Below are positions 1 to 5,880 of a stretch of 5,880 nt of DNA, in pieces. Each line of letters opens with the position of its first letter. Positions within the stretch are counted from its first letter, which is position 1. The stretch is from a virus (Duplodnaviria; Heunggongvirae; Uroviricota; Caudoviricetes). The position numbers and the translations under genes were made by a program. The notes under the pieces were generated by a model. It had not been told where the DNA came from and ran no database searches. It was given only the letters and a program-made list of their open reading frames with translations. The stretch lies in the IMG/VR virus record IMGVR_UViG_2711768167_000003, positions 1 through 5,880 of that record; one strand, written 5' to 3'.

Positions 1-600
1 CGACGGATGCCAGCCATCGGCCATCGGAAATTTCCCGATGGGTTCACTCATGCCGTCCAGATATCCGGGCTCCGTTGCCTGCGATGGCGTACCGTTCGAC
101 TCACTGGTCGGAGCACTCTCTCTCGCGCGCGCGTTATGTGTGGGGTTTAATTCTTTATCTGTATCTTTATTAGTTGCCTTTGTGTTTGCGTCATGTTCAA
201 ACACCACACCAATATTTGTTTGAACACCTGTTAAATCTCTCTCTTGTTTTGTTTGAACATCTGCTTCCTTTCTGCTTCTTCTGGCCTGAACAGATGCTTT
301 TCCGGCGGCTGATTTTTTGGTTAATTTTTCCCTGACTGATGCCAGATCTTCCTCAATTCGAAGATGCACCCATTCATCGCCGTTATCGTGAAAAAACTCC
401 CGCAAGGATGGCTCCACATCAGCCCATCGCTCATTAGTCAGACGGGCAATTTTTGCCAGCCTGTTTTTAGGTATTGGCTTTCCTGTTTGCCAGTAATTGA
501 ACATCAGCAACAAATATGCACCGTGCTCCTCTGCTGATAAATGCATGGTGTCAGCCAGGTAATCAGCGATGTACAGTTGCATGTATGGTAATGCGGCCAT
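1..600 (-). CDS. ydaU: DUF1376-family phage protein (YdaU-like), N-terminal 200 codons only; C-terminus lies beyond the left edge of the window
   Basis: Minus-strand ATG at 600..598 with no stop through position 1 (200 codons by manual translation); absent from the ORF track because there is no in-window stop. N-terminus MAALPYMQLYIADYLADTMHLSAEEHGAYLLLMFNYWQTGKPIP fits the DUF1376/YdaU signature as I recall it. AGAGG RBS (rc of 606..610) sits 5 nt upstream. Position directly downstream of the ydaT-like gene matches Rac order ydaS-ydaT-ydaU. Confidence 0.6.
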   Translation of the reverse strand, partial: MAALPYMQLYIADYLADTMHLSAEEHGAYLLLMFNYWQTGKPIPKNRLAKIARLTNERWADVEPSLREFFHDNGDEWVHLRIEEDLASVREKLTKKSAAGKASVQARRSRKEADVQTKQERDLTGVQTNIGVVFEHDANTKATNKDTDKELNPTHNARARESAPTSESNGTPSQATEPGYLDGMSEPIGKFPMADGWHPS

Positions 601-670
601 AATTGCCTCTTCTGATACCGAATTCCTTAATCACGTACTACCGAAAGCGATCCGGTATAACTATTGCCAG

Positions 671-1096
671 TCAGTGCATCACCACAGCATTACCCGCCGG
701 GCCACCACGATTCATCTGATTGAAACCGGCGATTGCCACTGCGATAAAATCATCAGCGTCTCTCACCAGCCGTTCTCGTGTCTCCAGCAGCTCCCTGAAA
801 TAGGCTGAGCTGTGGCTACGCATTCTGGCCACCAGCAAAGGCGGCATTGCCTTTTCGATCGCTGGTAGTAACGCCTGAATTTTTTCAACCGCATCAGGGG
901 TGTCTTTCTCCACCCAGCGGAAAATTTTCTGGGTATTACGGGCCAGGGCTTCCGGATGGCTGTCGTCATACAGTTCCGGAAACGTCATACCCAGCTCAAA
1001 ATAAGCCCGGGTTATTTCAGCTGCCGGAACTTTTTCACCATCCGGACGCGACCAGGCATTCATCGCCATGCGGATATGCTCATGCTTGATTTTCAT
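671..1096 (-). CDS. ydaT: YdaT-like protein (Rac prophage YdaT family, proposed CII-like regulator, toxic on overexpression), 141 aa
   Basis: ORF in track; N-terminus MKIKHEHI matches the start of E. coli YdaT as recalled, and length is about the same. GGGAGGG RBS (rc of 1102..1108) upstream. Start codon overlaps the stop of the upstream ydaS-like gene (ATGA on the minus strand at 1096..1093), implying translational coupling. Confidence 0.72.
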   Translation of the reverse strand: MKIKHEHIRMAMNAWSRPDGEKVPAAEITRAYFELGMTFPELYDDSHPEALARNTQKIFRWVEKDTPDAVEKIQALLPAIEKAMPPLLVARMRSHSSAYFRELLETRERLVRDADDFIAVAIAGFNQMNRGGPAGNAVVMH

Positions 1097-1353
1097 GAAT
1101 CACCCTCCCGAGCATATGCAGTGTTAGCCTTATATCCAGCAGGCAAGCCATCGGTGGGATTAGGGTATTTATCAGGGCGCAATTCATGCGGAGTCACTCC
1201 CCACTCAAGCGCCGCACATGCTGGAATAACCTCCTCCGCCGGAACTCGTTTTTTAAACCACACACTTATAGTTTGTGGCGTTTTACCAAGACGACGCCCT
1301 AATTCTGACTGACTCATTATCGACAGGATTTTTACTTGAGTACTTTTTTGCAT
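1093..1353 (-). CDS. ydaS: Cro-like HTH protein of the YdaS/DicC family, 86 aa
   Basis: ORF in track; HTH segment SQSELGRRLGKTPQTISVWFKK followed by VTPHELRPDKYP, resembling the YdaS-type Cro-like family. Strong GGAGGG RBS (rc of 1358..1363) 4 nt upstream of the ATG. Transcribed divergently from the repressor gene. Confidence 0.7.
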   Translation of the reverse strand: MQKSTQVKILSIMSQSELGRRLGKTPQTISVWFKKRVPAEEVIPACAALEWGVTPHELRPDKYPNPTDGLPAGYKANTAYAREGDS

Positions 1354-1473
1354 GCTTCCCTCCAGATTTTACGATGGCACCGATAATTACAAATTTAAAC
1401 TTAAATTTCAACTTCTATTTGTAATGTCACTTATCATTTTTTTCTGTAGGATTGCGGGACTAGTTTACGAGGT
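1354..1473. promoter_or_regulatory. Divergent promoter/operator region between the Cro-like (ydaS-like) and repressor (dicA-like) genes
   Basis: 120-bp AT-rich intergenic region between divergent genes. Perfect palindrome AAATTTAA-ac-TTAAATTT at 1391..1408, and a 9-bp inverted repeat ATTACAAAT (1386..1394) / ATTTGTAAT (1417..1425). Exact -35/-10 elements could not be assigned confidently by eye. Confidence 0.55.
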
Positions 1474-1872
1474 GTGGTGATGATCTTTGTAAAACGCCTT
1501 CAGCAGGTGTTGCAGGAATTGAATATAAACCAGTCAGAGCTGGGAAGACGTCTTGGTGTAAAACCCCAATCCGTGCAAGGTTGGTTGAAAGGCGTGATGC
1601 CAAGAATGGATAAACTGGAAAAATTAGCAGAGCTCTCACAACATCCCGTCCATTGGTTCTTTATGGAAGAAGAAACTCTCGGCGATAGGATGGCTGTATC
1701 CAGCAATGACAACCAACCACAACTTACAGAACAACAAAAAAAAATCATATCGCTTTTAGATGAGTTACCTCAAAGCGACGCAGAGCAGATCATTCGAGAA
1801 ATGGAGCAAAAACGCGATTTCTATAAACGAAAACTTGAAGAGTTACTGCGGCAGAAAAACAAAACTGCCTGA
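1474..1872 (+). CDS. dicA: DicA-like XRE-family HTH repressor (phage immunity repressor analogue), 132 aa if GTG 1474 is used, 130 aa from ATG 1480
   Basis: ORF in track; N-terminal HTH NINQSELGRRLGVKPQSVQGWLKG; C-terminal helical region (KKIISLLDELPQSDAEQIIREMEQKRDFYKRKLEELLRQ) resembles the DicA C-terminus as recalled. No LexA-like peptidase domain. GAGGTG (1468..1473) is better placed as an RBS for ATG 1480 than for GTG 1474, so the true start is probably 1480. Confidence 0.7.
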   Translation: MVMIFVKRLQQVLQELNINQSELGRRLGVKPQSVQGWLKGVMPRMDKLEKLAELSQHPVHWFFMEEETLGDRMAVSSNDNQPQLTEQQKKIISLLDELPQSDAEQIIREMEQKRDFYKRKLEELLRQKNKTA

Positions 1873-1903
1873 TGCGTTTCTTTTCTGGAACGAGCATCAG
1901 GCA
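1866..1903. terminator. Candidate bidirectional hairpin terminator between the convergent dicA-like and higA genes
   Basis: 10-bp perfect inverted repeat TGCCTGATGC (1866..1875) / GCATCAGGCA (1894..1903) with an 18-nt loop. On the minus strand the stem is followed by GTTTTGTTTTT (rc of 1853..1865), fitting a Rho-independent terminator for higBA. No T-run follows on the plus strand. The left arm overlaps the last codons and stop of the dicA-like gene. Confidence 0.4.
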
Positions 1904-1918
1904 AATGACTAGCGGATG

Positions 1919-2278
1919 TTATAATCCCACCAAGCTTTCCAGGGGGATTCCAAATTGATTATGAAGACGTCGAATCATTGGTAACGTAAGGCTTCTGGTG
2001 CCATTCAACACCTCGTAAACCCGATTTTTTTTCCCAATTGCGGGCTCCAAATCTTTCACAGTCAGACCCTGCTGTTCCATACGAAATCTTATAGCTTCAA
2101 TTGGGGATGGTGGTTCAATGGGATAATGTTTTTTTTCATATTCCTCTATTAGCAAACACATCACCTCAAAGAAATCCCCCTCAGGCGTGTTAATTTCCGG
2201 TTCATTGTCGAACATGGGCTCAACAGCACGCAACGCTGCTTCATAATCTTGCTCTGTACGAATAGGTTTGATGTTCAT
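1919..2278 (-). CDS. higA: HigA-family antitoxin (type II TA antitoxin with C-terminal XRE HTH), 119 aa
   Basis: ORF in track; C-terminal HTH LTVKDLEPAIGKKNRVYEVLNGTRSLTLPMIRRLHNQFGIPLESL resembles the C-terminal HTH of E. coli HigA as recalled. Lies immediately downstream of the higB-like gene with a 2-nt gap, the toxin-first order typical of higBA. Confidence 0.8.
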   Translation of the reverse strand: MNIKPIRTEQDYEAALRAVEPMFDNEPEINTPEGDFFEVMCLLIEEYEKKHYPIEPPSPIEAIRFRMEQQGLTVKDLEPAIGKKNRVYEVLNGTRSLTLPMIRRLHNQFGIPLESLVGL

Positions 2279-2280
2279 GC

Positions 2281-2583
2281 TTACTCCAGTTCGATGGTAT
2301 CAGCATCAATGGCATCGTATTCCTTGTGGTTTCCAATGAATTTAACAAACACCCATCCTCGCTGATACGCAATTGAAACAATTAAACGGTAATGATTACC
2401 TTTTATGTTGAATACCACGCGCCGGTTTTTCAATATACTGGCCGTTCGGTATTGAGCCTTAATGTCTGCCGGGCTTTTCCAGTCAGCTTTTGCTGTCTCA
2501 TCCACCCATGCCCTTAGCGGTTGTTCTGCATCGGGATTCTTCGCCCAAAAATCCCTGAGTGTTTTAACTGAGATAATCTTCAT
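2281..2583 (-). CDS. higB: HigB-family toxin (RelE/ParE superfamily ribosome-dependent mRNA interferase), 100 aa
   Basis: ORF in track; segment RRVVFNIKGNHYRLIVSIAYQRGWVFVKFIGNHKEYD aligns by eye with the HigB segment HYVFNVGGNELRVVAMVFFESQKCYIREVMTHKEYD, including the HKEYD motif. Toxin-upstream, antitoxin-downstream arrangement. Confidence 0.8.
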   Translation of the reverse strand: MKIISVKTLRDFWAKNPDAEQPLRAWVDETAKADWKSPADIKAQYRTASILKNRRVVFNIKGNHYRLIVSIAYQRGWVFVKFIGNHKEYDAIDADTIELE

Positions 2584-2700
2584 AGCTGCATATTAGTCCC
2601 GTTTTGGGACCAATGCAACTACCAGAAATTACAATTTTAATGATAAATATATTGACCAATTAAATTTTAATTTGTAGATTGTATTCACCAACCCTCCCCG
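2584..2700. promoter_or_regulatory. AT-rich regulatory region upstream of higB (minus strand) containing a candidate plus-strand promoter for the dicB operon and operator-like repeats
   Basis: Candidate sigma70 promoter on the plus strand: -35 TTGACC (2652..2657), 17-nt spacer, -10 TAGATT (2675..2680). AT-rich repeats AATTACAATTTTAA (2627..2640) and ATTAAATTTTAATTTGTA (2659..2676) resemble the motifs in the 1354..1473 operator region. Small hairpin GTCCC-gtttt-GGGAC at 2596..2610 lies in the probable higB 5' UTR. The higB promoter itself was not resolved. Confidence 0.45.
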
Positions 2701-2866
2701 CCCCACAGAACGCAGGGCAATACTTCGAGTTACCAGGCAGTGGTCAGGGGTTAAGTAGCCAGCCCGAGGCGTATGAACATGACGGCAGGGTTTAACCTTA
2801 ACTATGCAGCAGGTTTTTGTTCCGCTACTCCGGCGTTAAGGGGAAACAGCACTGGGAGAAATCAGT

Positions 2867-3085
2867 ATGCAGAAGCGAGAACCCGTCATCATCGCGCCAG
2901 ACTATACCGATGATGAACTTTATGAGTGGATGCGCCAGAAAATTAAGGCAGCGCAGGACCTGAAATGGGCCAATGAAGCCAGGGCTAAGCAGGCTGAAAA
3001 TCTGTCCGCTCTGGAGCAGGATATCACCAATCTGGAAAAAGCAGCGGCATTAAGCATTGCCAGAATGATTACATACCCGCGTTAA
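2867..3085 (+). CDS. ydfC: YdfC-like small protein, first gene of the dicB-type operon, 72 aa, function unknown
   Basis: ORF in track; GGAG about 10 nt upstream of the ATG. Length and position (upstream of dicF and dicB, same strand) match Qin ydfC. The protein has a predicted helical, coiled-coil-like C-terminal half. The homology call rests on synteny and recalled similarity, not a search. Confidence 0.55.
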   Translation: MQKREPVIIAPDYTDDELYEWMRQKIKAAQDLKWANEARAKQAENLSALEQDITNLEKAAALSIARMITYPR

Positions 3086-3421
3086 TAGCTAACCAACGAA
3101 GCTAAGGTTGGTAATTAAGGAGTTCTCCACGGGTAAGGTGGAGTACGTGCGCCGGACACGGGTGAGCATCCGGCACTGACAGTTTACTGAAAGGATATTT
3201 CCCTGAAAAGTCAGACCATAACGCGAAAGCGCACGGCGAGGTAGCTGGTTCATAGATAGTCTGTCGTTAAATTTTCGTCGACCGTGCGCTTCCGGTTGTG
3301 GCACTCCGCGAAATGGCGCGGCGTAATCATGGCGGGGTACCCTTCCCCTTGAGGACACCGGGTTGTCAGGCTGACCATGCGCCTGAGTGACAACCCCGCT
3401 GCAACGCCCTCTGTTATCAAT

Positions 3422-3474
3422 TTTCTGGTGACGTTTGGCGGTATCAGTTTTACTCCGTGACTGCTCTGCCGCCC
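3422..3474 (+). ncRNA. dicF: DicF small regulatory RNA (Hfq-dependent sRNA that represses ftsZ translation)
   Basis: Sequence TTTCTGGTGACGTTTGGCGGTATCAGTTTTACTCCGTGACTGCTCTGCCGCCC followed by TTTTT matches the DicF sRNA as I recall it (about 53 nt). Sits between ydfC-like and dicB on the same strand, as in Qin. No protein-coding potential in this stretch. Confidence 0.85.
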
Positions 3475-3480
3475 TTTTTA
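3437..3480 (+). terminator. Rho-independent terminator forming the DicF 3' end
   Basis: GC-rich stem GGCGGTA (3437..3443) / TGCCGCC (3467..3473) with an internal CAGT/ACTG sub-stem, followed by T-run TTTTT (3475..3479). Confidence 0.6.
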
Positions 3481-3483
3481 AAG

Positions 3484-3631
3484 TGAATTTTGTGATGTGG
3501 TGAATGCGGCTGAGCGCACGTGGAACAGTTAAAACCAAAAACAGTGTTATGGGTGGATTCTCTGTATCCGGCGTTAATTGTTAACTGGTTAACGTCACCT
3601 GGAGGCACCAGGCACCGCATCACAAAATTCA
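3484..3631. repeat. 14-bp perfect inverted repeat bracketing the dicF-dicB spacer; tandem GTTAAC palindromes inside
   Basis: TGAATTTTGTGATG at 3484..3497 and its exact reverse complement CATCACAAAATTCA at 3618..3631; partial extension GGTG/CACC inward. Internal GTTAAC-tg-GTTAAC at 3580..3593. The right arm ends 5 nt before the dicB RBS (AGGA 3638..3641). Confidence 0.8.
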
Positions 3632-3648
3632 TTGTTTAGGACGCGATA

Positions 3649-3831
3649 ATGGAAACGTTATTACCAAACGTCAATACGTCTGAAGGTTGTTTTGAAATTG
3701 GTGTCAGAATCAGTAACCCTGTATTTACTGAAGATGCCATTAATAAGAGAAAACACGAACGGGAGCTATTAAATCAAATATGCATTGTTTCAATGCTGGC
3801 CCGTTTACGCCTGATGCAAAAAGGACGCTGA
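3649..3831 (+). CDS. dicB: DicB cell-division inhibitor (acts with MinC to block FtsZ ring formation), 60 aa
   Basis: ORF in track; METLLPNVNTSEGCFEIGVRISNPVFTEDAINKRKHERELLNQICIVSMLARLRLMQKGR closely matches E. coli DicB as recalled. AGGA RBS (3638..3641) 7 nt upstream. Immediately downstream of dicF. Confidence 0.88.
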   Translation: METLLPNVNTSEGCFEIGVRISNPVFTEDAINKRKHERELLNQICIVSMLARLRLMQKGR

Positions 3832-3833
3832 CA

Positions 3834-4025
3834 ATGAATACAGCATTTGCACTCGTTCTGACAGTTTTTCTTAATACAGGCGAACCAGTCGATCTTGTTA
3901 TTGGTATACATGACTCAATGAAAGAATGCATGGCTGCCGCAGCGGAACAGAAAATTCCCGGCAACTGTTATCCGGTTGATAAAGTTATTCGCATGGACAA
4001 TAACGAAATCCCGGCTGGTCTTTAA
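3834..4025 (+). CDS. ydfD: YdfD-like DUF1482 small protein (Qin YdfD causes lysis when overexpressed), 63 aa
   Basis: Internal ATG 3834 of track ORF 3780..4025, chosen because AAGGA (3821..3825) lies 8 nt upstream and it starts 2 nt after the dicB stop. MNTAFALVLTVFLNTGEPVDLVIGIHDSMKECMAAAAEQKIPGNCYPVDKVI fits the DUF1482 pattern (hydrophobic FALVL N-terminus, two conserved Cys, GxCYP). Confidence 0.72.
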   Translation: MNTAFALVLTVFLNTGEPVDLVIGIHDSMKECMAAAAEQKIPGNCYPVDKVIRMDNNEIPAGL

Positions 4026-4117
4026 AACAGTTCCGTAATAAACATCCGATTTCATTCTTATATGCCAGCAATGGCAGGGATTTGTTCACCCTTAAATCTG
4101 TAATGAGGTAAAACAAA

Positions 4118-5880
4118 ATGAGTAAAGTCTTTATTTGCGCCGCCATTCCGGACGAACAGGCAATAAAGGAAGAAGGTGCAGTTGCTGTAGCCACTGCCAT
4201 TGAAGCCGGTGATGAACGTCGCGCCCGCGCAAAATTTCACTGGCAATTCCTGGAACATTATCCGGCTGCTCAGGACTGCGCTTATAAATTTCTTGTTTGC
4301 GAGGATAAACCCGGTATACCCCGCCCTGCCCTCGATTCCTGGGATGCTGAATATATGCAGGAAAACCGCTGGGATGAGGAGTCTGCTTCCTTTGTCCCTG
4401 TTGAGACTGAATCAGATCCGATGAACGCCACTTTTGACAAGCTGGCCCCTGAAGTACAGAACGCTGTCATGGTTAGGTTCGACGCATGTAAAAACATCAC
4501 CGTTGATATGGTGATTAGCGCGCAGGAATTGTTGCAGGAAGACATGGCAACATTCGACGGACATATCGTTGAAGCGTTGATGAAAATGCCAGAAGTTAAC
4601 GCCATGTATCCGGAGCTTAAGCTGCATGCCATCGGGTGGGTTAAACATAAATGTAAGCCGGGTGCAAAATGGCCTGAGATCCAGACAGAATTACGCACAT
4701 GGAAAAAACGTCGCGAAGCCGAACGCAAAGAAACCGGGAAATACACGTCTGTTGTAGATCTCGCCCGCGCCAGAGTCAACCTACAGCACACTGAAAACTC
4801 AGCAGAAAAAATCCACCCTGTCACTGCAGTCATTCGTCGCGAATATAAGCAGACGTGGAAAACACTGGATGATGAACTGGCCTACGCTCTGTGGCCTGGT
4901 GACATTGATGCCGGAAACATTGACGGCAGCATCCATCGCTGGGCAAAAAATGAAGTTATCGACAACGACCGCGAAGACTGGAAGCGTATCTCGGCATCAA
5001 TGCGCAAACAGCCTGATGCCCTTCGCTACGACCGCCAGACTATTTTTGGCCTTGTCCGTGAACGTCCGATCGACATTCACAAAGACCCTGTGGCACTGAA
5101 CAAATACATTACTGAATACCTGACTACAAAGGGCGTGTTTGAAGATGAAGGAACAAATCAGAGCGCAACTGATACTCTCTCGTCGCCAGTACCAGAAACT
5201 GATGCAGTGGAAACGGCAATTCCGGACAACGAAAAAACCGAATGCAAAGTGGAAGTCGAACCATCTGTAGAGCGTGAGGGGCCGTTCTACTTCCTCTTCA
5301 CCGACAAGGATGGCGAAAAATACGGTCGCGCAAACAAACTTTCTGGTCTGGATAAGGCGCTGGCTGCCGGGGCTACTGAAATCACGAAAGAAGAATATTT
5401 CGCCCGCAAAAACGGTACATACTCAGGTTCACAACAAAATACTGGTGCATCTGACACGACCGCACAACCAGAGCCGGTAAAAGTTACAGCTGACGAAGTA
5501 AGCAAAATTATGCAGGCAGCCAATATCAGCCAGCCTGACGCCGATAAGTTGCTTGCGGCCTCTCGCGGTGAATTTGTTGCAGGGATTAGCGATCCGAATG
5601 ATCCGAAATGGGTGAAGGGGATTGAAACCCGCGATTCTGTGAACCAGAATCAGCAAGAAACGGAACAGAACGACCAGAAAGCGGAACAAAACAGCCCAAA
5701 TGTGCAACGAAAAGAGCCAAAAGCGAAACAATCCGAACCAGTAGCACAACAGGAACCGGAAAAAGTCTGCACCGTCTGCGGTCAGAGCGGTGTCGACAAC
5801 TGTCCTGATTGTGGCGTGGTGATGGGCGACGCAACATACCAGGAAATGTTCGATGAAGAGAATCAGCCTGAAGTTCAGGA
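4118..5880 (+). CDS. recE: RecE/YdfE-family exodeoxyribonuclease VIII-like protein, N-terminal 587 codons; continues beyond the right edge of the window
   Basis: ATG 4118 with GAGG RBS (4105..4108); manual translation shows no stop in this frame through 5878, so the ORF is missing from the supplied track. Contains DKLLAASRGEFVAGISDPNDPKWVKGIETRD, which matches a segment I recall from E. coli RecE. The N-terminus MSKVFICAAIPDEQ resembles the Qin YdfE fragment. The many short ORFs listed in 4200..5840 are in other frames and overlap this gene. Confidence 0.7.
   Translation, partial: MSKVFICAAIPDEQAIKEEGAVAVATAIEAGDERRARAKFHWQFLEHYPAAQDCAYKFLVCEDKPGIPRPALDSWDAEYMQENRWDEESASFVPVETESDPMNATFDKLAPEVQNAVMVRFDACKNITVDMVISAQELLQEDMATFDGHIVEALMKMPEVNAMYPELKLHAIGWVKHKCKPGAKWPEIQTELRTWKKRREAERKETGKYTSVVDLARARVNLQHTENSAEKIHPVTAVIRREYKQTWKTLDDELAYALWPGDIDAGNIDGSIHRWAKNEVIDNDREDWKRISASMRKQPDALRYDRQTIFGLVRERPIDIHKDPVALNKYITEYLTTKGVFEDEGTNQSATDTLSSPVPETDAVETAIPDNEKTECKVEVEPSVEREGPFYFLFTDKDGEKYGRANKLSGLDKALAAGATEITKEEYFARKNGTYSGSQQNTGASDTTAQPEPVKVTADEVSKIMQAANISQPDADKLLAASRGEFVAGISDPNDPKWVKGIETRDSVNQNQQETEQNDQKAEQNSPNVQRKEPKAKQSEPVAQQEPEKVCTVCGQSGVDNCPDCGVVMGDATYQEMFDEENQPEVQ

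Follow-up and report, generated by a model that had tools for sequence, protein, structure and literature searches.

What lies in the few hundred nucleotides between ydfC and DicF? DicF, a small RNA that blocks cell division, is one of the earliest known sRNAs of bacteria, and few genetic elements have been studied as much as Qin and P1. The 137 nt that the 190-nt form of DicF carries in addition have so far counted as a leader to be discarded; our analysis shows that most of them belong to a covarying RNA built around a four-way junction, with a pseudoknot. The window analysed here is the whole stretch of 5,880 nt, positions 1 to 5,880 of the IMG/VR virus record IMGVR_UViG_2711768167_000003. 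An initial annotation, made from the letters alone, had described the gap as structured, GC-rich and free of credible ORFs, and had proposed that it might be the DicF precursor region with processing structures, or might hold a further small RNA.

The window covers the immunity and early-left region of a Qin-like lambdoid prophage, in which the following features frame the gap.

671-1096, minus strand: YdaT gene
1093-1353, minus strand: YdaS-type Cro gene
1474-1872, plus strand: DicA/CI-type repressor gene
1919-2278, minus strand: gene for HigA of a HigB/HigA toxin-antitoxin pair
2281-2583, minus strand: gene for HigB of the HigB/HigA pair
2652..2680, plus strand: early-left (dicBp/pL-type) promoter-like site, TTGACC-17-TAGATT
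2867..3085, plus strand: ydfC-like ORF of 72 aa, called 'protein YdfC' in E. coli records
3423..3474, plus strand: DicF sRNA (Rfam RF00039, 76.7 bits)
3649-3831, plus strand: dicB (Pfam DicB, 127 bits), with other genes downstream

The interval 3086..3422, a ydfC 3'UTR or non-coding spacer of about 337 nt that runs up to DicF, is the untranslated pre-DicF leader of the early-left (dicBF) operon of this Qin-like prophage. In K-12 the order ydfC-dicF-dicB is identical, the 340-nt ydfC-dicF gap carries no annotation, and the interval can be aligned to it over its full length. The dicBF operon is transcribed from dicBp, which has been called pL-like (PMC10448788), and the transcript that carries the interval would presumably originate at the promoter-like site at 2652..2680, whose K-12 counterpart reads TTGACC-17-TAATCT.

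The view that nothing here is translated held up. Neither the 149-aa minus-strand ORF at 3089..3538 nor the two smaller ORFs matched Pfam, and a PHROGs search of these three overlapping ORFs returned only noise. A protein-coding gene was rejected on these grounds and on the character of the substitutions, which are compensatory in the manner of an RNA, with G.U pairs on the plus strand. A structured RNA explains the spurious 'hypothetical protein' calls made over this region in several phage records. The gap (3086..3422) is indeed rich in hairpins, non-coding and enriched in GC (54.7% in the interval and 63.7% in the core defined below, against 47% in the whole window). All four inverted repeats named in the initial annotation exist, and three had been placed correctly: ACCAAC 3092-3097 / GTTGGT 3107-3112, GGGTTGTCA 3360-3368 / TGACAACCC 3388-3396, and a perfect 10-mer that is part of CGAAAGCGCACGG 3224-3236 / CCGTGCGCTTCCG 3282-3294. 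The fourth, GCCGGA/TCCGGC, was placed 10 nt off and lies at 3151-3156 / 3169-3174 rather than at 3161-3166 / 3179-3184. Compared with 1000 dinucleotide shuffles, the longest perfect arm (10 nt) has p ~0.009 and the occurrence of three 9-nt perfect inverted-repeat windows p ~0.002. The region as a whole folds with an MFE z of -2.75, and 0 of 100 shuffles fold as well, an excess which is present on both strands, so that folding energy is uninformative as to the strand.

In similarity searches the conservation of the interval is highly uneven, and comparison between lineages divides it into four parts, namely a spacer (3086-3202), a hairpin that we call H0 (3215-3300), a core (3295-3407) and a linker (3408-3422). 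H0 with its RNase III site and the linker with its RNase E site are already described; as an RNA domain, the core appears to be undescribed. These parts and their 3' surroundings are as follows.

3086..3202, plus strand: lineage-specific spacer with three small hairpins
3215..3300, plus strand: long hairpin H0, lower stem CGAAAGCGCACGGCGA / UCGACCGUGCGCUUCCG
3295..3407, plus strand: conserved core of about 113 nt, four-way junction with a pseudoknot
3408..3422, plus strand: linker between core and DicF, different in sequence between lineages
3422/3423, plus strand: RNase E cut that makes the 5' end of 53-nt DicF, AU-rich, between UAUCAAU and UUUCUGG
3476..3648, plus strand: structured DicF-dicB spacer with a closing helix of about 25 bp (~3476-3502 with ~3616-3640)

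The 190-nt DicF species arises by an RNase III cut at +813/814 and is converted by RNase E to the 53-nt sRNA, whose formation is RNase E-dependent; cells in stationary phase build up both forms, and the study found no internal promoter (PMC10448788). We mapped the RNase III cut through K-12 in two ways, 190 nt back from the DicF 3' end (1649245) and 813 nt on from the promoter (~1649249), and by alignment these place the published cut at about 3288-3294 of the window, in the 3' arm of H0. Judged from sequence and alignment, H0 is the predicted RNase III processing hairpin, which would supply a double-stranded substrate at the mapped 5' end of the 190-nt species, and that end lies at most about 7 nt from the closing helix of the core. 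The proposal of a DicF precursor with processing structures was therefore correct and had already been published: pre-DicF of 190 nt (Faubladier 1990; Ragunathan 2023, PMC10448788) is the same RNA from the same locus, the 3' two-thirds of our interval are its 5' part, and the strongest hairpin of the initial annotation holds the RNase III site. The accessible papers take the extra 137 nt as a processing intermediate, and none of them reports a conserved fold, covariation within it or its presence in P1 and in cdtI/Stx2c-type phages that lack canonical DicF. A description of the core fold was likewise not found in the accessible literature, with the qualification that Faubladier & Bouche 1994 may note part of the upstream conservation.

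In Qin-type lineages the lower stem of H0 is nearly invariant and its apex hypervariable. The hairpin has been rebuilt by compensatory change in L155, L179 and L154, where GCGCAUUCC/GGAAUGCGC replaces GCGCACGG/CCGUGCGC, and the F1055/Erwinia/Izhakiella, V054 and L158 lineages have an H0-equivalent hairpin with a different paired sequence in each. In all of these (Qin, L155, F1055/Erwinia/Izhakiella, V054 and L158) the 3' arm of the hairpin adjoins the core. The same 5' flank of the core can also be drawn as a long-range helix with AGCGCACG or AAGAGCAU 3' of the terminator; this pairing is marginal in each of the two main lineages (p 0.007-0.15) and fails in Trabulsiella, Citrobacter and P1, and on the sequences compared the upstream partner appears the better supported of the two. 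An apparent upstream hairpin partner of the core in P1 was rejected: the sequence is the C1 operator, and because transcription starts only downstream of it, it cannot form an RNA hairpin.

Alignment of the window with K-12, P1, cdtI and Salmonella phage F1055 delimits the core as a sharply bounded block of about 110 nt, whose elements in the window are these.

3295-3302 / 3400-3407, plus strand: closing helix P1, GUUGUGGC/GCUGCAAC
3306-3310 / 3317-3321, plus strand: helix P2, CCGCG/CGCGG
3323-3324 / 3356-3357, plus strand: base helix of P3, GGU/ACC in the family, GU/AC in the window, where a G is deleted
3333-3336 / 3344-3347, plus strand: variable hairpin B of P3, GGGG/CCCC
3360-3371 / 3381-3383 plus 3388-3396, plus strand: helix P4, GGGUUGUCAGGC/GCC...UGACAACCC
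3327-3331 with 3375-3379, plus strand: pseudoknot, CAUGG with CCAUG

In the family the pseudoknot comprises six pairs, formed by GUAUGG in the 5' internal loop of P3 with CCAUAC in the loop of P4. Among 23 MAFFT-aligned representatives, 93% of cells pair in this fold, compared with 35-57% in slid controls. A larger set of 50 distinct model-aligned sequences, which includes the most diverged members, gives 95.1% against 34-52%; the alignment of this set was fitted to the model and its sequences are related, two points that the slid controls and the MAFFT set address. In these 50 sequences compensatory change is seen in 20 of 39 pairs (5-11 when slid) and in 102 cells, and on each of five measures 0 of 500 shuffles come up to what is observed. 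No helix is free of compensatory change, and the pseudoknot has one covarying position (U-A 43, C-G 5, U.G 2). The frequent G.U pairs in the covarying helices identify the plus strand, sense to the operon, as the functional one. The covariance model, R1, scores 129.7 bits on the window core, and the MFE structure of that core recovers P1, P2 and P4. Its folding energy is ordinary for its composition (z = -0.13); exceptional stability is thus not demonstrated, and the case rests on covariation. The unpaired nucleotides of the junction are not conserved. We conclude from this pattern of substitution that the core is almost certainly a real, conserved and structured sense-strand RNA.

This outcome bears on the remaining proposals made from the letters. 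Compensatory change across lineages, which a covariance analysis had been suggested to look for, is present in the stems of H0 and of 3295-3407. The idea of a further small RNA was right in part only: the GGGTTGTCA/TGACAACCC repeat turns out to be helix P4 of the conserved covarying RNA. A search with Rfam models, also suggested, returned DicF at 3423..3474, outside 3089..3421 (76.7 bits on a 52-nt model with a gathering score of 48), with no match inside 3089..3421. Rfam cmscan at E<=1 on the window and eight related loci found nothing overlapping the core, and the core sequences provide a ready seed alignment for a new RNA family.

With the K-12 form as the query, 4,315 of 5,426 complete E. 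coli genomes (~80%) proved to carry the core, at 8,966 places in all, with at most 8 copies per genome and almost never annotated; for canonical DicF the figures are 6,700 places and 3,975 genomes. Of the two the core is the more widespread, and it is also met where canonical DicF is missing. It extends to other Enterobacterales: scans for its pattern in species-representative genomes and viral contigs located it in Escherichia, Shigella, Citrobacter, Trabulsiella, Erwinia and Izhakiella as well as in many viral contigs, and a few matches in MAGs resemble bin contamination or chance. Each phage genome has one copy, on the sense strand of an early operon. The complete genomes of cdtI and Tritos have their single copy in the left operon only, and no second copy was found in the right operon of cdtI or Tritos or in the right-operon part of the window. 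The cdtI, 2H10 and Stx2c phages carry the core after the repressor gene, about 285 nt past a near-consensus promoter, and have no N-type gene near it. About 25 nt separate the core from the start site of the C1-controlled Pban in P1 and P1-like plasmids, where it overlaps an annotated 'dicF-like region' and lies ahead of tRNA genes and ban. Across these settings the sequence around the core varies throughout but the fold and the pseudoknot are kept, and none of the phage protein genes was found to accompany the core across lineages. The window core itself is an unusual variant, and megablast searches with it under-count the E. coli copies.

A GGCGG...CCGCC hairpin with a U-run, which gives a defined 3' end, follows 35-125 nt 3' of the core in nearly all lineages, as canonical DicF or as one of at least five diverged variants; in the window it is the intrinsic terminator of DicF (GGCGGUAUCAG.../...CUGCUCUGCCGCC followed by U5, fold -15.9 kcal/mol). 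Linker and 'seed' sequences are unrelated between lineages, and the linker ranges from about 12 to about 90 nt. The L154/L158/L189/L215 lineage has a core with no DicF-like terminator, which runs into GC-rich non-coding sequence, and this shows that the core is not merely an appendage of DicF. Beyond DicF, the DicF-dicB spacer (3476..3648) folds with z = -4.98 and has a sub-threshold STnc100 match. RNase III is known to make the 3' end of a 72-nt DicF form (PMC5069750), and the 25-bp helix of the spacer is a likely substrate for it, the assignment of that cut to this helix being inferred; as such a substrate, it would set the 3' bound of the excised unit.

The core raises the questions of why the 190-nt DicF form accumulates, how phages that have no N express dicB and the genes downstream past the DicF terminator, and whether temperate phages share an early RNA module that works with host machinery. 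The reading we prefer, with a probability of roughly 45%, is that its main role is in scaffolding and biogenesis: the core would form the folded main part of a separate early phage RNA, both ends of which are deliberately set. Its 5' end would come from RNase III cleavage of H0, or in P1 from transcription initiation, and the 3' end from the intrinsic terminator or the second RNase III helix. The compact fold might stabilise the ~190-nt Hfq-associated species and set the position of the RNase E cut that frees a variable DicF-type sRNA, and the core, once freed as a piece of about 134 nt, may also serve some separate purpose. [quoted passage not shown] A review (PMC9438474) lists DicF as the first example of the 3'UTR-derived sRNAs released by RNase E, and work cited there has stem-loops guiding precise RNase E processing of MicL, another 3'UTR-derived sRNA, which provides a precedent. 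MicL, CpxQ and SroC (PMC9438474) resemble DicF as sRNAs from mRNA ends that are freed by RNase E, with upstream structure defining the cut. Their precursors, however, have simple stem-loops, whereas the core is a junction with a pseudoknot that recurs across unrelated phage types, and at its locus an RNase III hairpin also defines the 5' end of the precursor. Such an architecture, near-invariant from Erwinia to P1, seems over-elaborate for a scaffold when set against other RNase E-processed sRNAs, and the terminator-free cores of the L154/L158/L189/L215 lineage indicate that sRNA biogenesis is not the sole role. The ordinary folding energy of the core also counts against this proposal, as does the lack of any mention, in the accessible papers, of a stable species of about 134 nt.

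The main alternative, which we consider less likely, is that the core is a processive antiterminator in the manner of put or EAR, its nascent fold modifying RNA polymerase alone or together with Nus factors. Polymerase so modified might then, at the same modest odds, read through DicF-type and later terminators into dicB, the recombination genes, xis and int, or into ban in P1. The placement of the core fits this proposal: it heads early operons in the sense orientation (after pL in cdtI, 2H10 and Stx2c phages, after Pban in P1), the lambdoids that bear it have no N at the canonical position and carry the core where nutL-N or putL would sit, and there are genes beyond the intrinsic terminator. 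We calculate that the published 1,146-nt transcript extends some 148 nt beyond the DicF terminator, a sign of considerable read-through. The core is also constant where the distance (35-125 nt) and sequence of the terminator vary, with some cores having no adjacent terminator, and this suits an element that acts from a distance better than one with an overlapping expression platform. Like HK022 put, the core is a sense-strand structured RNA with a precise conserved fold that heads the early-left operon of N-less lambdoids, 5' of terminators. put, however, is factor-independent, about 70 nt long, made of two stem-loops and a short triplex, and present in two copies (putL and putR), whereas the core has about 113 nt, a four-way junction with a pseudoknot and one copy per phage, with none in the right operon, unlike both putL/putR and nutL/nutR. 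R1 run on the whole HK022 genome with filters off gave a best score of 11.2 bits, on a trivial hairpin, so membership in put was rejected and the likeness is one of analogy only.

EAR (eps-associated RNA) of the Bacillales, which is among the Rfam families, is a conserved structured RNA of about 120 nt that acts as an intra-operon processive antiterminator. The core is similar to it in being a conserved structured RNA of about that size between genes inside an operon; it differs in its unrelated hosts and in having no sequence or model similarity to it (no Rfam match). With lambda nut (boxA plus boxB) the core shares a position in the early-left transcript and, in several lineages, a boxA-like string (CGCUCUUUU, UGCUCUUUC) immediately on its 5' side, but it has no N gene and no boxB-type hairpin, and the string has diverged to UGCGCUU in the Qin type. 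That string is the 3' arm of H0 and covaries with its upstream partner, which counts against antitermination and led us to reject a nut reading of the 5' flank. A lambda-type nut site was likewise rejected, there being no N-sized ORF from promoter to core and no arginine-rich product among the first ORFs, and YfdP was rejected as an N-like protein, since it is not arginine-rich and has an acidic N-terminus. Antitermination has no need of the conserved RNase III site that directly precedes the core. We give a limited chance to the reading in which the core founds a class of processive antiterminators of its own, akin to HK022 put in neither sequence nor fold, and replaces N/nut. If this were true, one antiterminator would serve the early-left operon of many N-less lambdoids and the ban operon of P1, and one transcription unit would yield a terminated sRNA and also the downstream division, recombination and replication genes.

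It is more doubtful that the released core of about 134 nt acts in trans, as a stable ncRNA that binds or decoys a conserved host macromolecule. The candidate partners, each no less doubtful, would be an RNase, Hfq, or a defence nuclease directed against tRNA-like RNAs, and the early operon would make this RNA before anything else. In its favour, mapped or conserved processing sites create both ends of the core, its fold and tertiary contact are kept where its neighbours vary and where no phage protein gene co-occurs, one lineage has it with no DicF-like partner, tRNA genes lie in the same operon in P1-like elements, and the Hfq-enriched interval noted above (PMC4152368) would also suit such a role. 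Against it, the accessible literature has no report of any released core fragment, and ARAGORN found neither a tRNA nor a tmRNA in the window. As the unpaired junction nucleotides are not conserved, no target or partner can be inferred. A tRNA-like identity for the core itself was rejected on the ARAGORN result and on NCCA-like tails after P1 that are inconsistent among lineages.

A ligand-sensing riboswitch or attenuator, in which the core as aptamer would act on the downstream terminator, is very unlikely. The complexity of the core equals that of known four-way-junction aptamers, and an intrinsic terminator comes next in most lineages; but the 3' strand of P1 has no conserved alternative pairing to the terminator, there is no association with metabolic genes and no Rfam riboswitch match, and the linkers, which vary in length and sequence as described and lead to no adjacent terminator in one lineage, have no common expression platform. 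Least credible is that the interval is a generic structured spacer against Rho loading or exonucleases, or a decayed gene, with no specific fold: the stretch from ydfC to dicB is indeed about 560 nt of untranslated, GC-rich sequence, but such a view does not lead one to expect compensatory change in all helices, a pseudoknot that covaries and conservation that stops sharply, and the overlapping ORFs have no protein-family support.

The 5' third of the interval does behave as a dispensable spacer, and it is here that the initial annotation's expectation of conserved stems failed, the three 5'-most small hairpins being lineage-specific and partly deletable and the other stems conserved. Its small elements are the following.

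3092-3097 / 3107-3112, plus strand: hairpin 1
3122-3130 / 3138-3146, plus strand: hairpin 2
3151-3156 / 3169-3174, plus strand: hairpin 3
3203..3218, plus strand: small hairpin, CCCUGAAAAGUCAGGG in most Qin-type relatives

The segment 3086-3202 is common to close relatives only and is missing in the cdtI, P1, F1055 and L158 lineages. Hairpin 1 shows one compensatory C-G to U-A change, and other lineages have an unrelated hairpin in its place; a 29-nt deletion between direct repeats removes hairpin 2 and half of hairpin 3 in two lineages. Judged by such losses, the small hairpins of 3086-3202 appear to be dispensable. The hairpin at 3203..3218 is weakened in the window (CUGA/UCAG).

The window's copy of the core, the conserved four-way-junction RNA with a pseudoknot that lies 5' of DicF, is an unusual variant, with at most 96.5% identity to any complete E. 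coli genome. It carries two sequence changes:

Window 3322-3331 stretch: 1-nt deletion at the P3 base, which reads GGC-GUAA.
Window 3322-3331 and 3375-3380: U-to-C change in the pseudoknot, with a matching A-to-G change in the P4 loop.

The resulting C/G pseudoknot pair is identical to the pair in phage P1.

Downstream of the core, other lineages carry at least five diverged DicF-like hairpins (L003, L004, L007, L008, L018, L025-L028, L054 and L155), which have UUUGGCGG...CCGCCCUUUUU in common and whose loops are pyrimidine-rich. Their scores do not reach the Rfam threshold for DicF (37.6 bits in L155, for example), and the breadth of the DicF family probably goes well beyond what RF00039 covers.

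The interval between DicF and dicB is itself structured:

Window 3476-3648: DicF-dicB spacer, z = -4.98, with a closing helix of about 25 bp formed by strands at ~3476-3502 and ~3616-3640.

The sequence of this helix is altered in L155 and L179, by changes that are apparently compensatory. The Rfam STnc100 model matches the spacer below threshold (37 bits versus a gathering score of 47), and P1, L155 and L174 give matches of comparable weakness. The 3' end of the 72-nt form of DicF is made by RNase III (PMC5069750), and the position of that end would fall inside the ~25-bp helix. A '1,146-nt ydfABC-dicF' transcript has also been published for K-12 (PMC10448788). [quoted passage not shown] With such an end, the major wild-type band would have to come from read-through followed by processing.

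On the 5' side of the core, direct repeats of CACGGGT[A/G]AG (within window ~3129-3167) lie on both sides of a 29-nt segment that is precisely lost in two related viral contigs, L027 and L142. This loss is a natural deletion polymorphism, and it takes out two of the hairpins that the initial annotation had noted in the spacer after ydfC. A different element adjoins the core in P1:

L002 (phage P1) 2474-2490: GATTTATAGAGCGAT, directly 5' of the P1 core, resembling the inverted C1 operator consensus.

This element may be a degenerate third operator beside Op72.

Further RNA matches lie near the core or in the immunity region of other loci:

L155 4506-4632, minus strand: Rfam tRNA-model match, 127 nt, 40 bits versus a gathering score of 29.
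L003 (phage cdtI) 40-228, minus strand in the locus: adjacent Rfam matches to C4 antisense RNA (68 bits) and isrK (60 bits).

The L155 match, which lies upstream of the core at a distance of ~150-270 nt, exceeds the length of a normal tRNA; it may be either an interrupted tRNA or an element that resembles one. The cdtI matches are on the right-operon side of the immunity region. In the viral lineage of L158, L154, L189 and L215, the core sits within about 1.4 kb that is poor in ORFs (~4400-5825 in L158). On its 3' side, a GC-rich stretch of ~130 nt is kept across contigs of this lineage and has no match in Rfam, so further structured RNA may be present.

The window has an inserted toxin-antitoxin gene pair, with the DicA-like repressor gene on one side and the early-left promoter on the other:

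Window 1919-2583, minus strand: HigB toxin gene (PF09907, 113 bits) and HigA-like HTH antitoxin gene.

The window lacks both ydfA and ydfB, whereas K-12 and phage Tritos have them.
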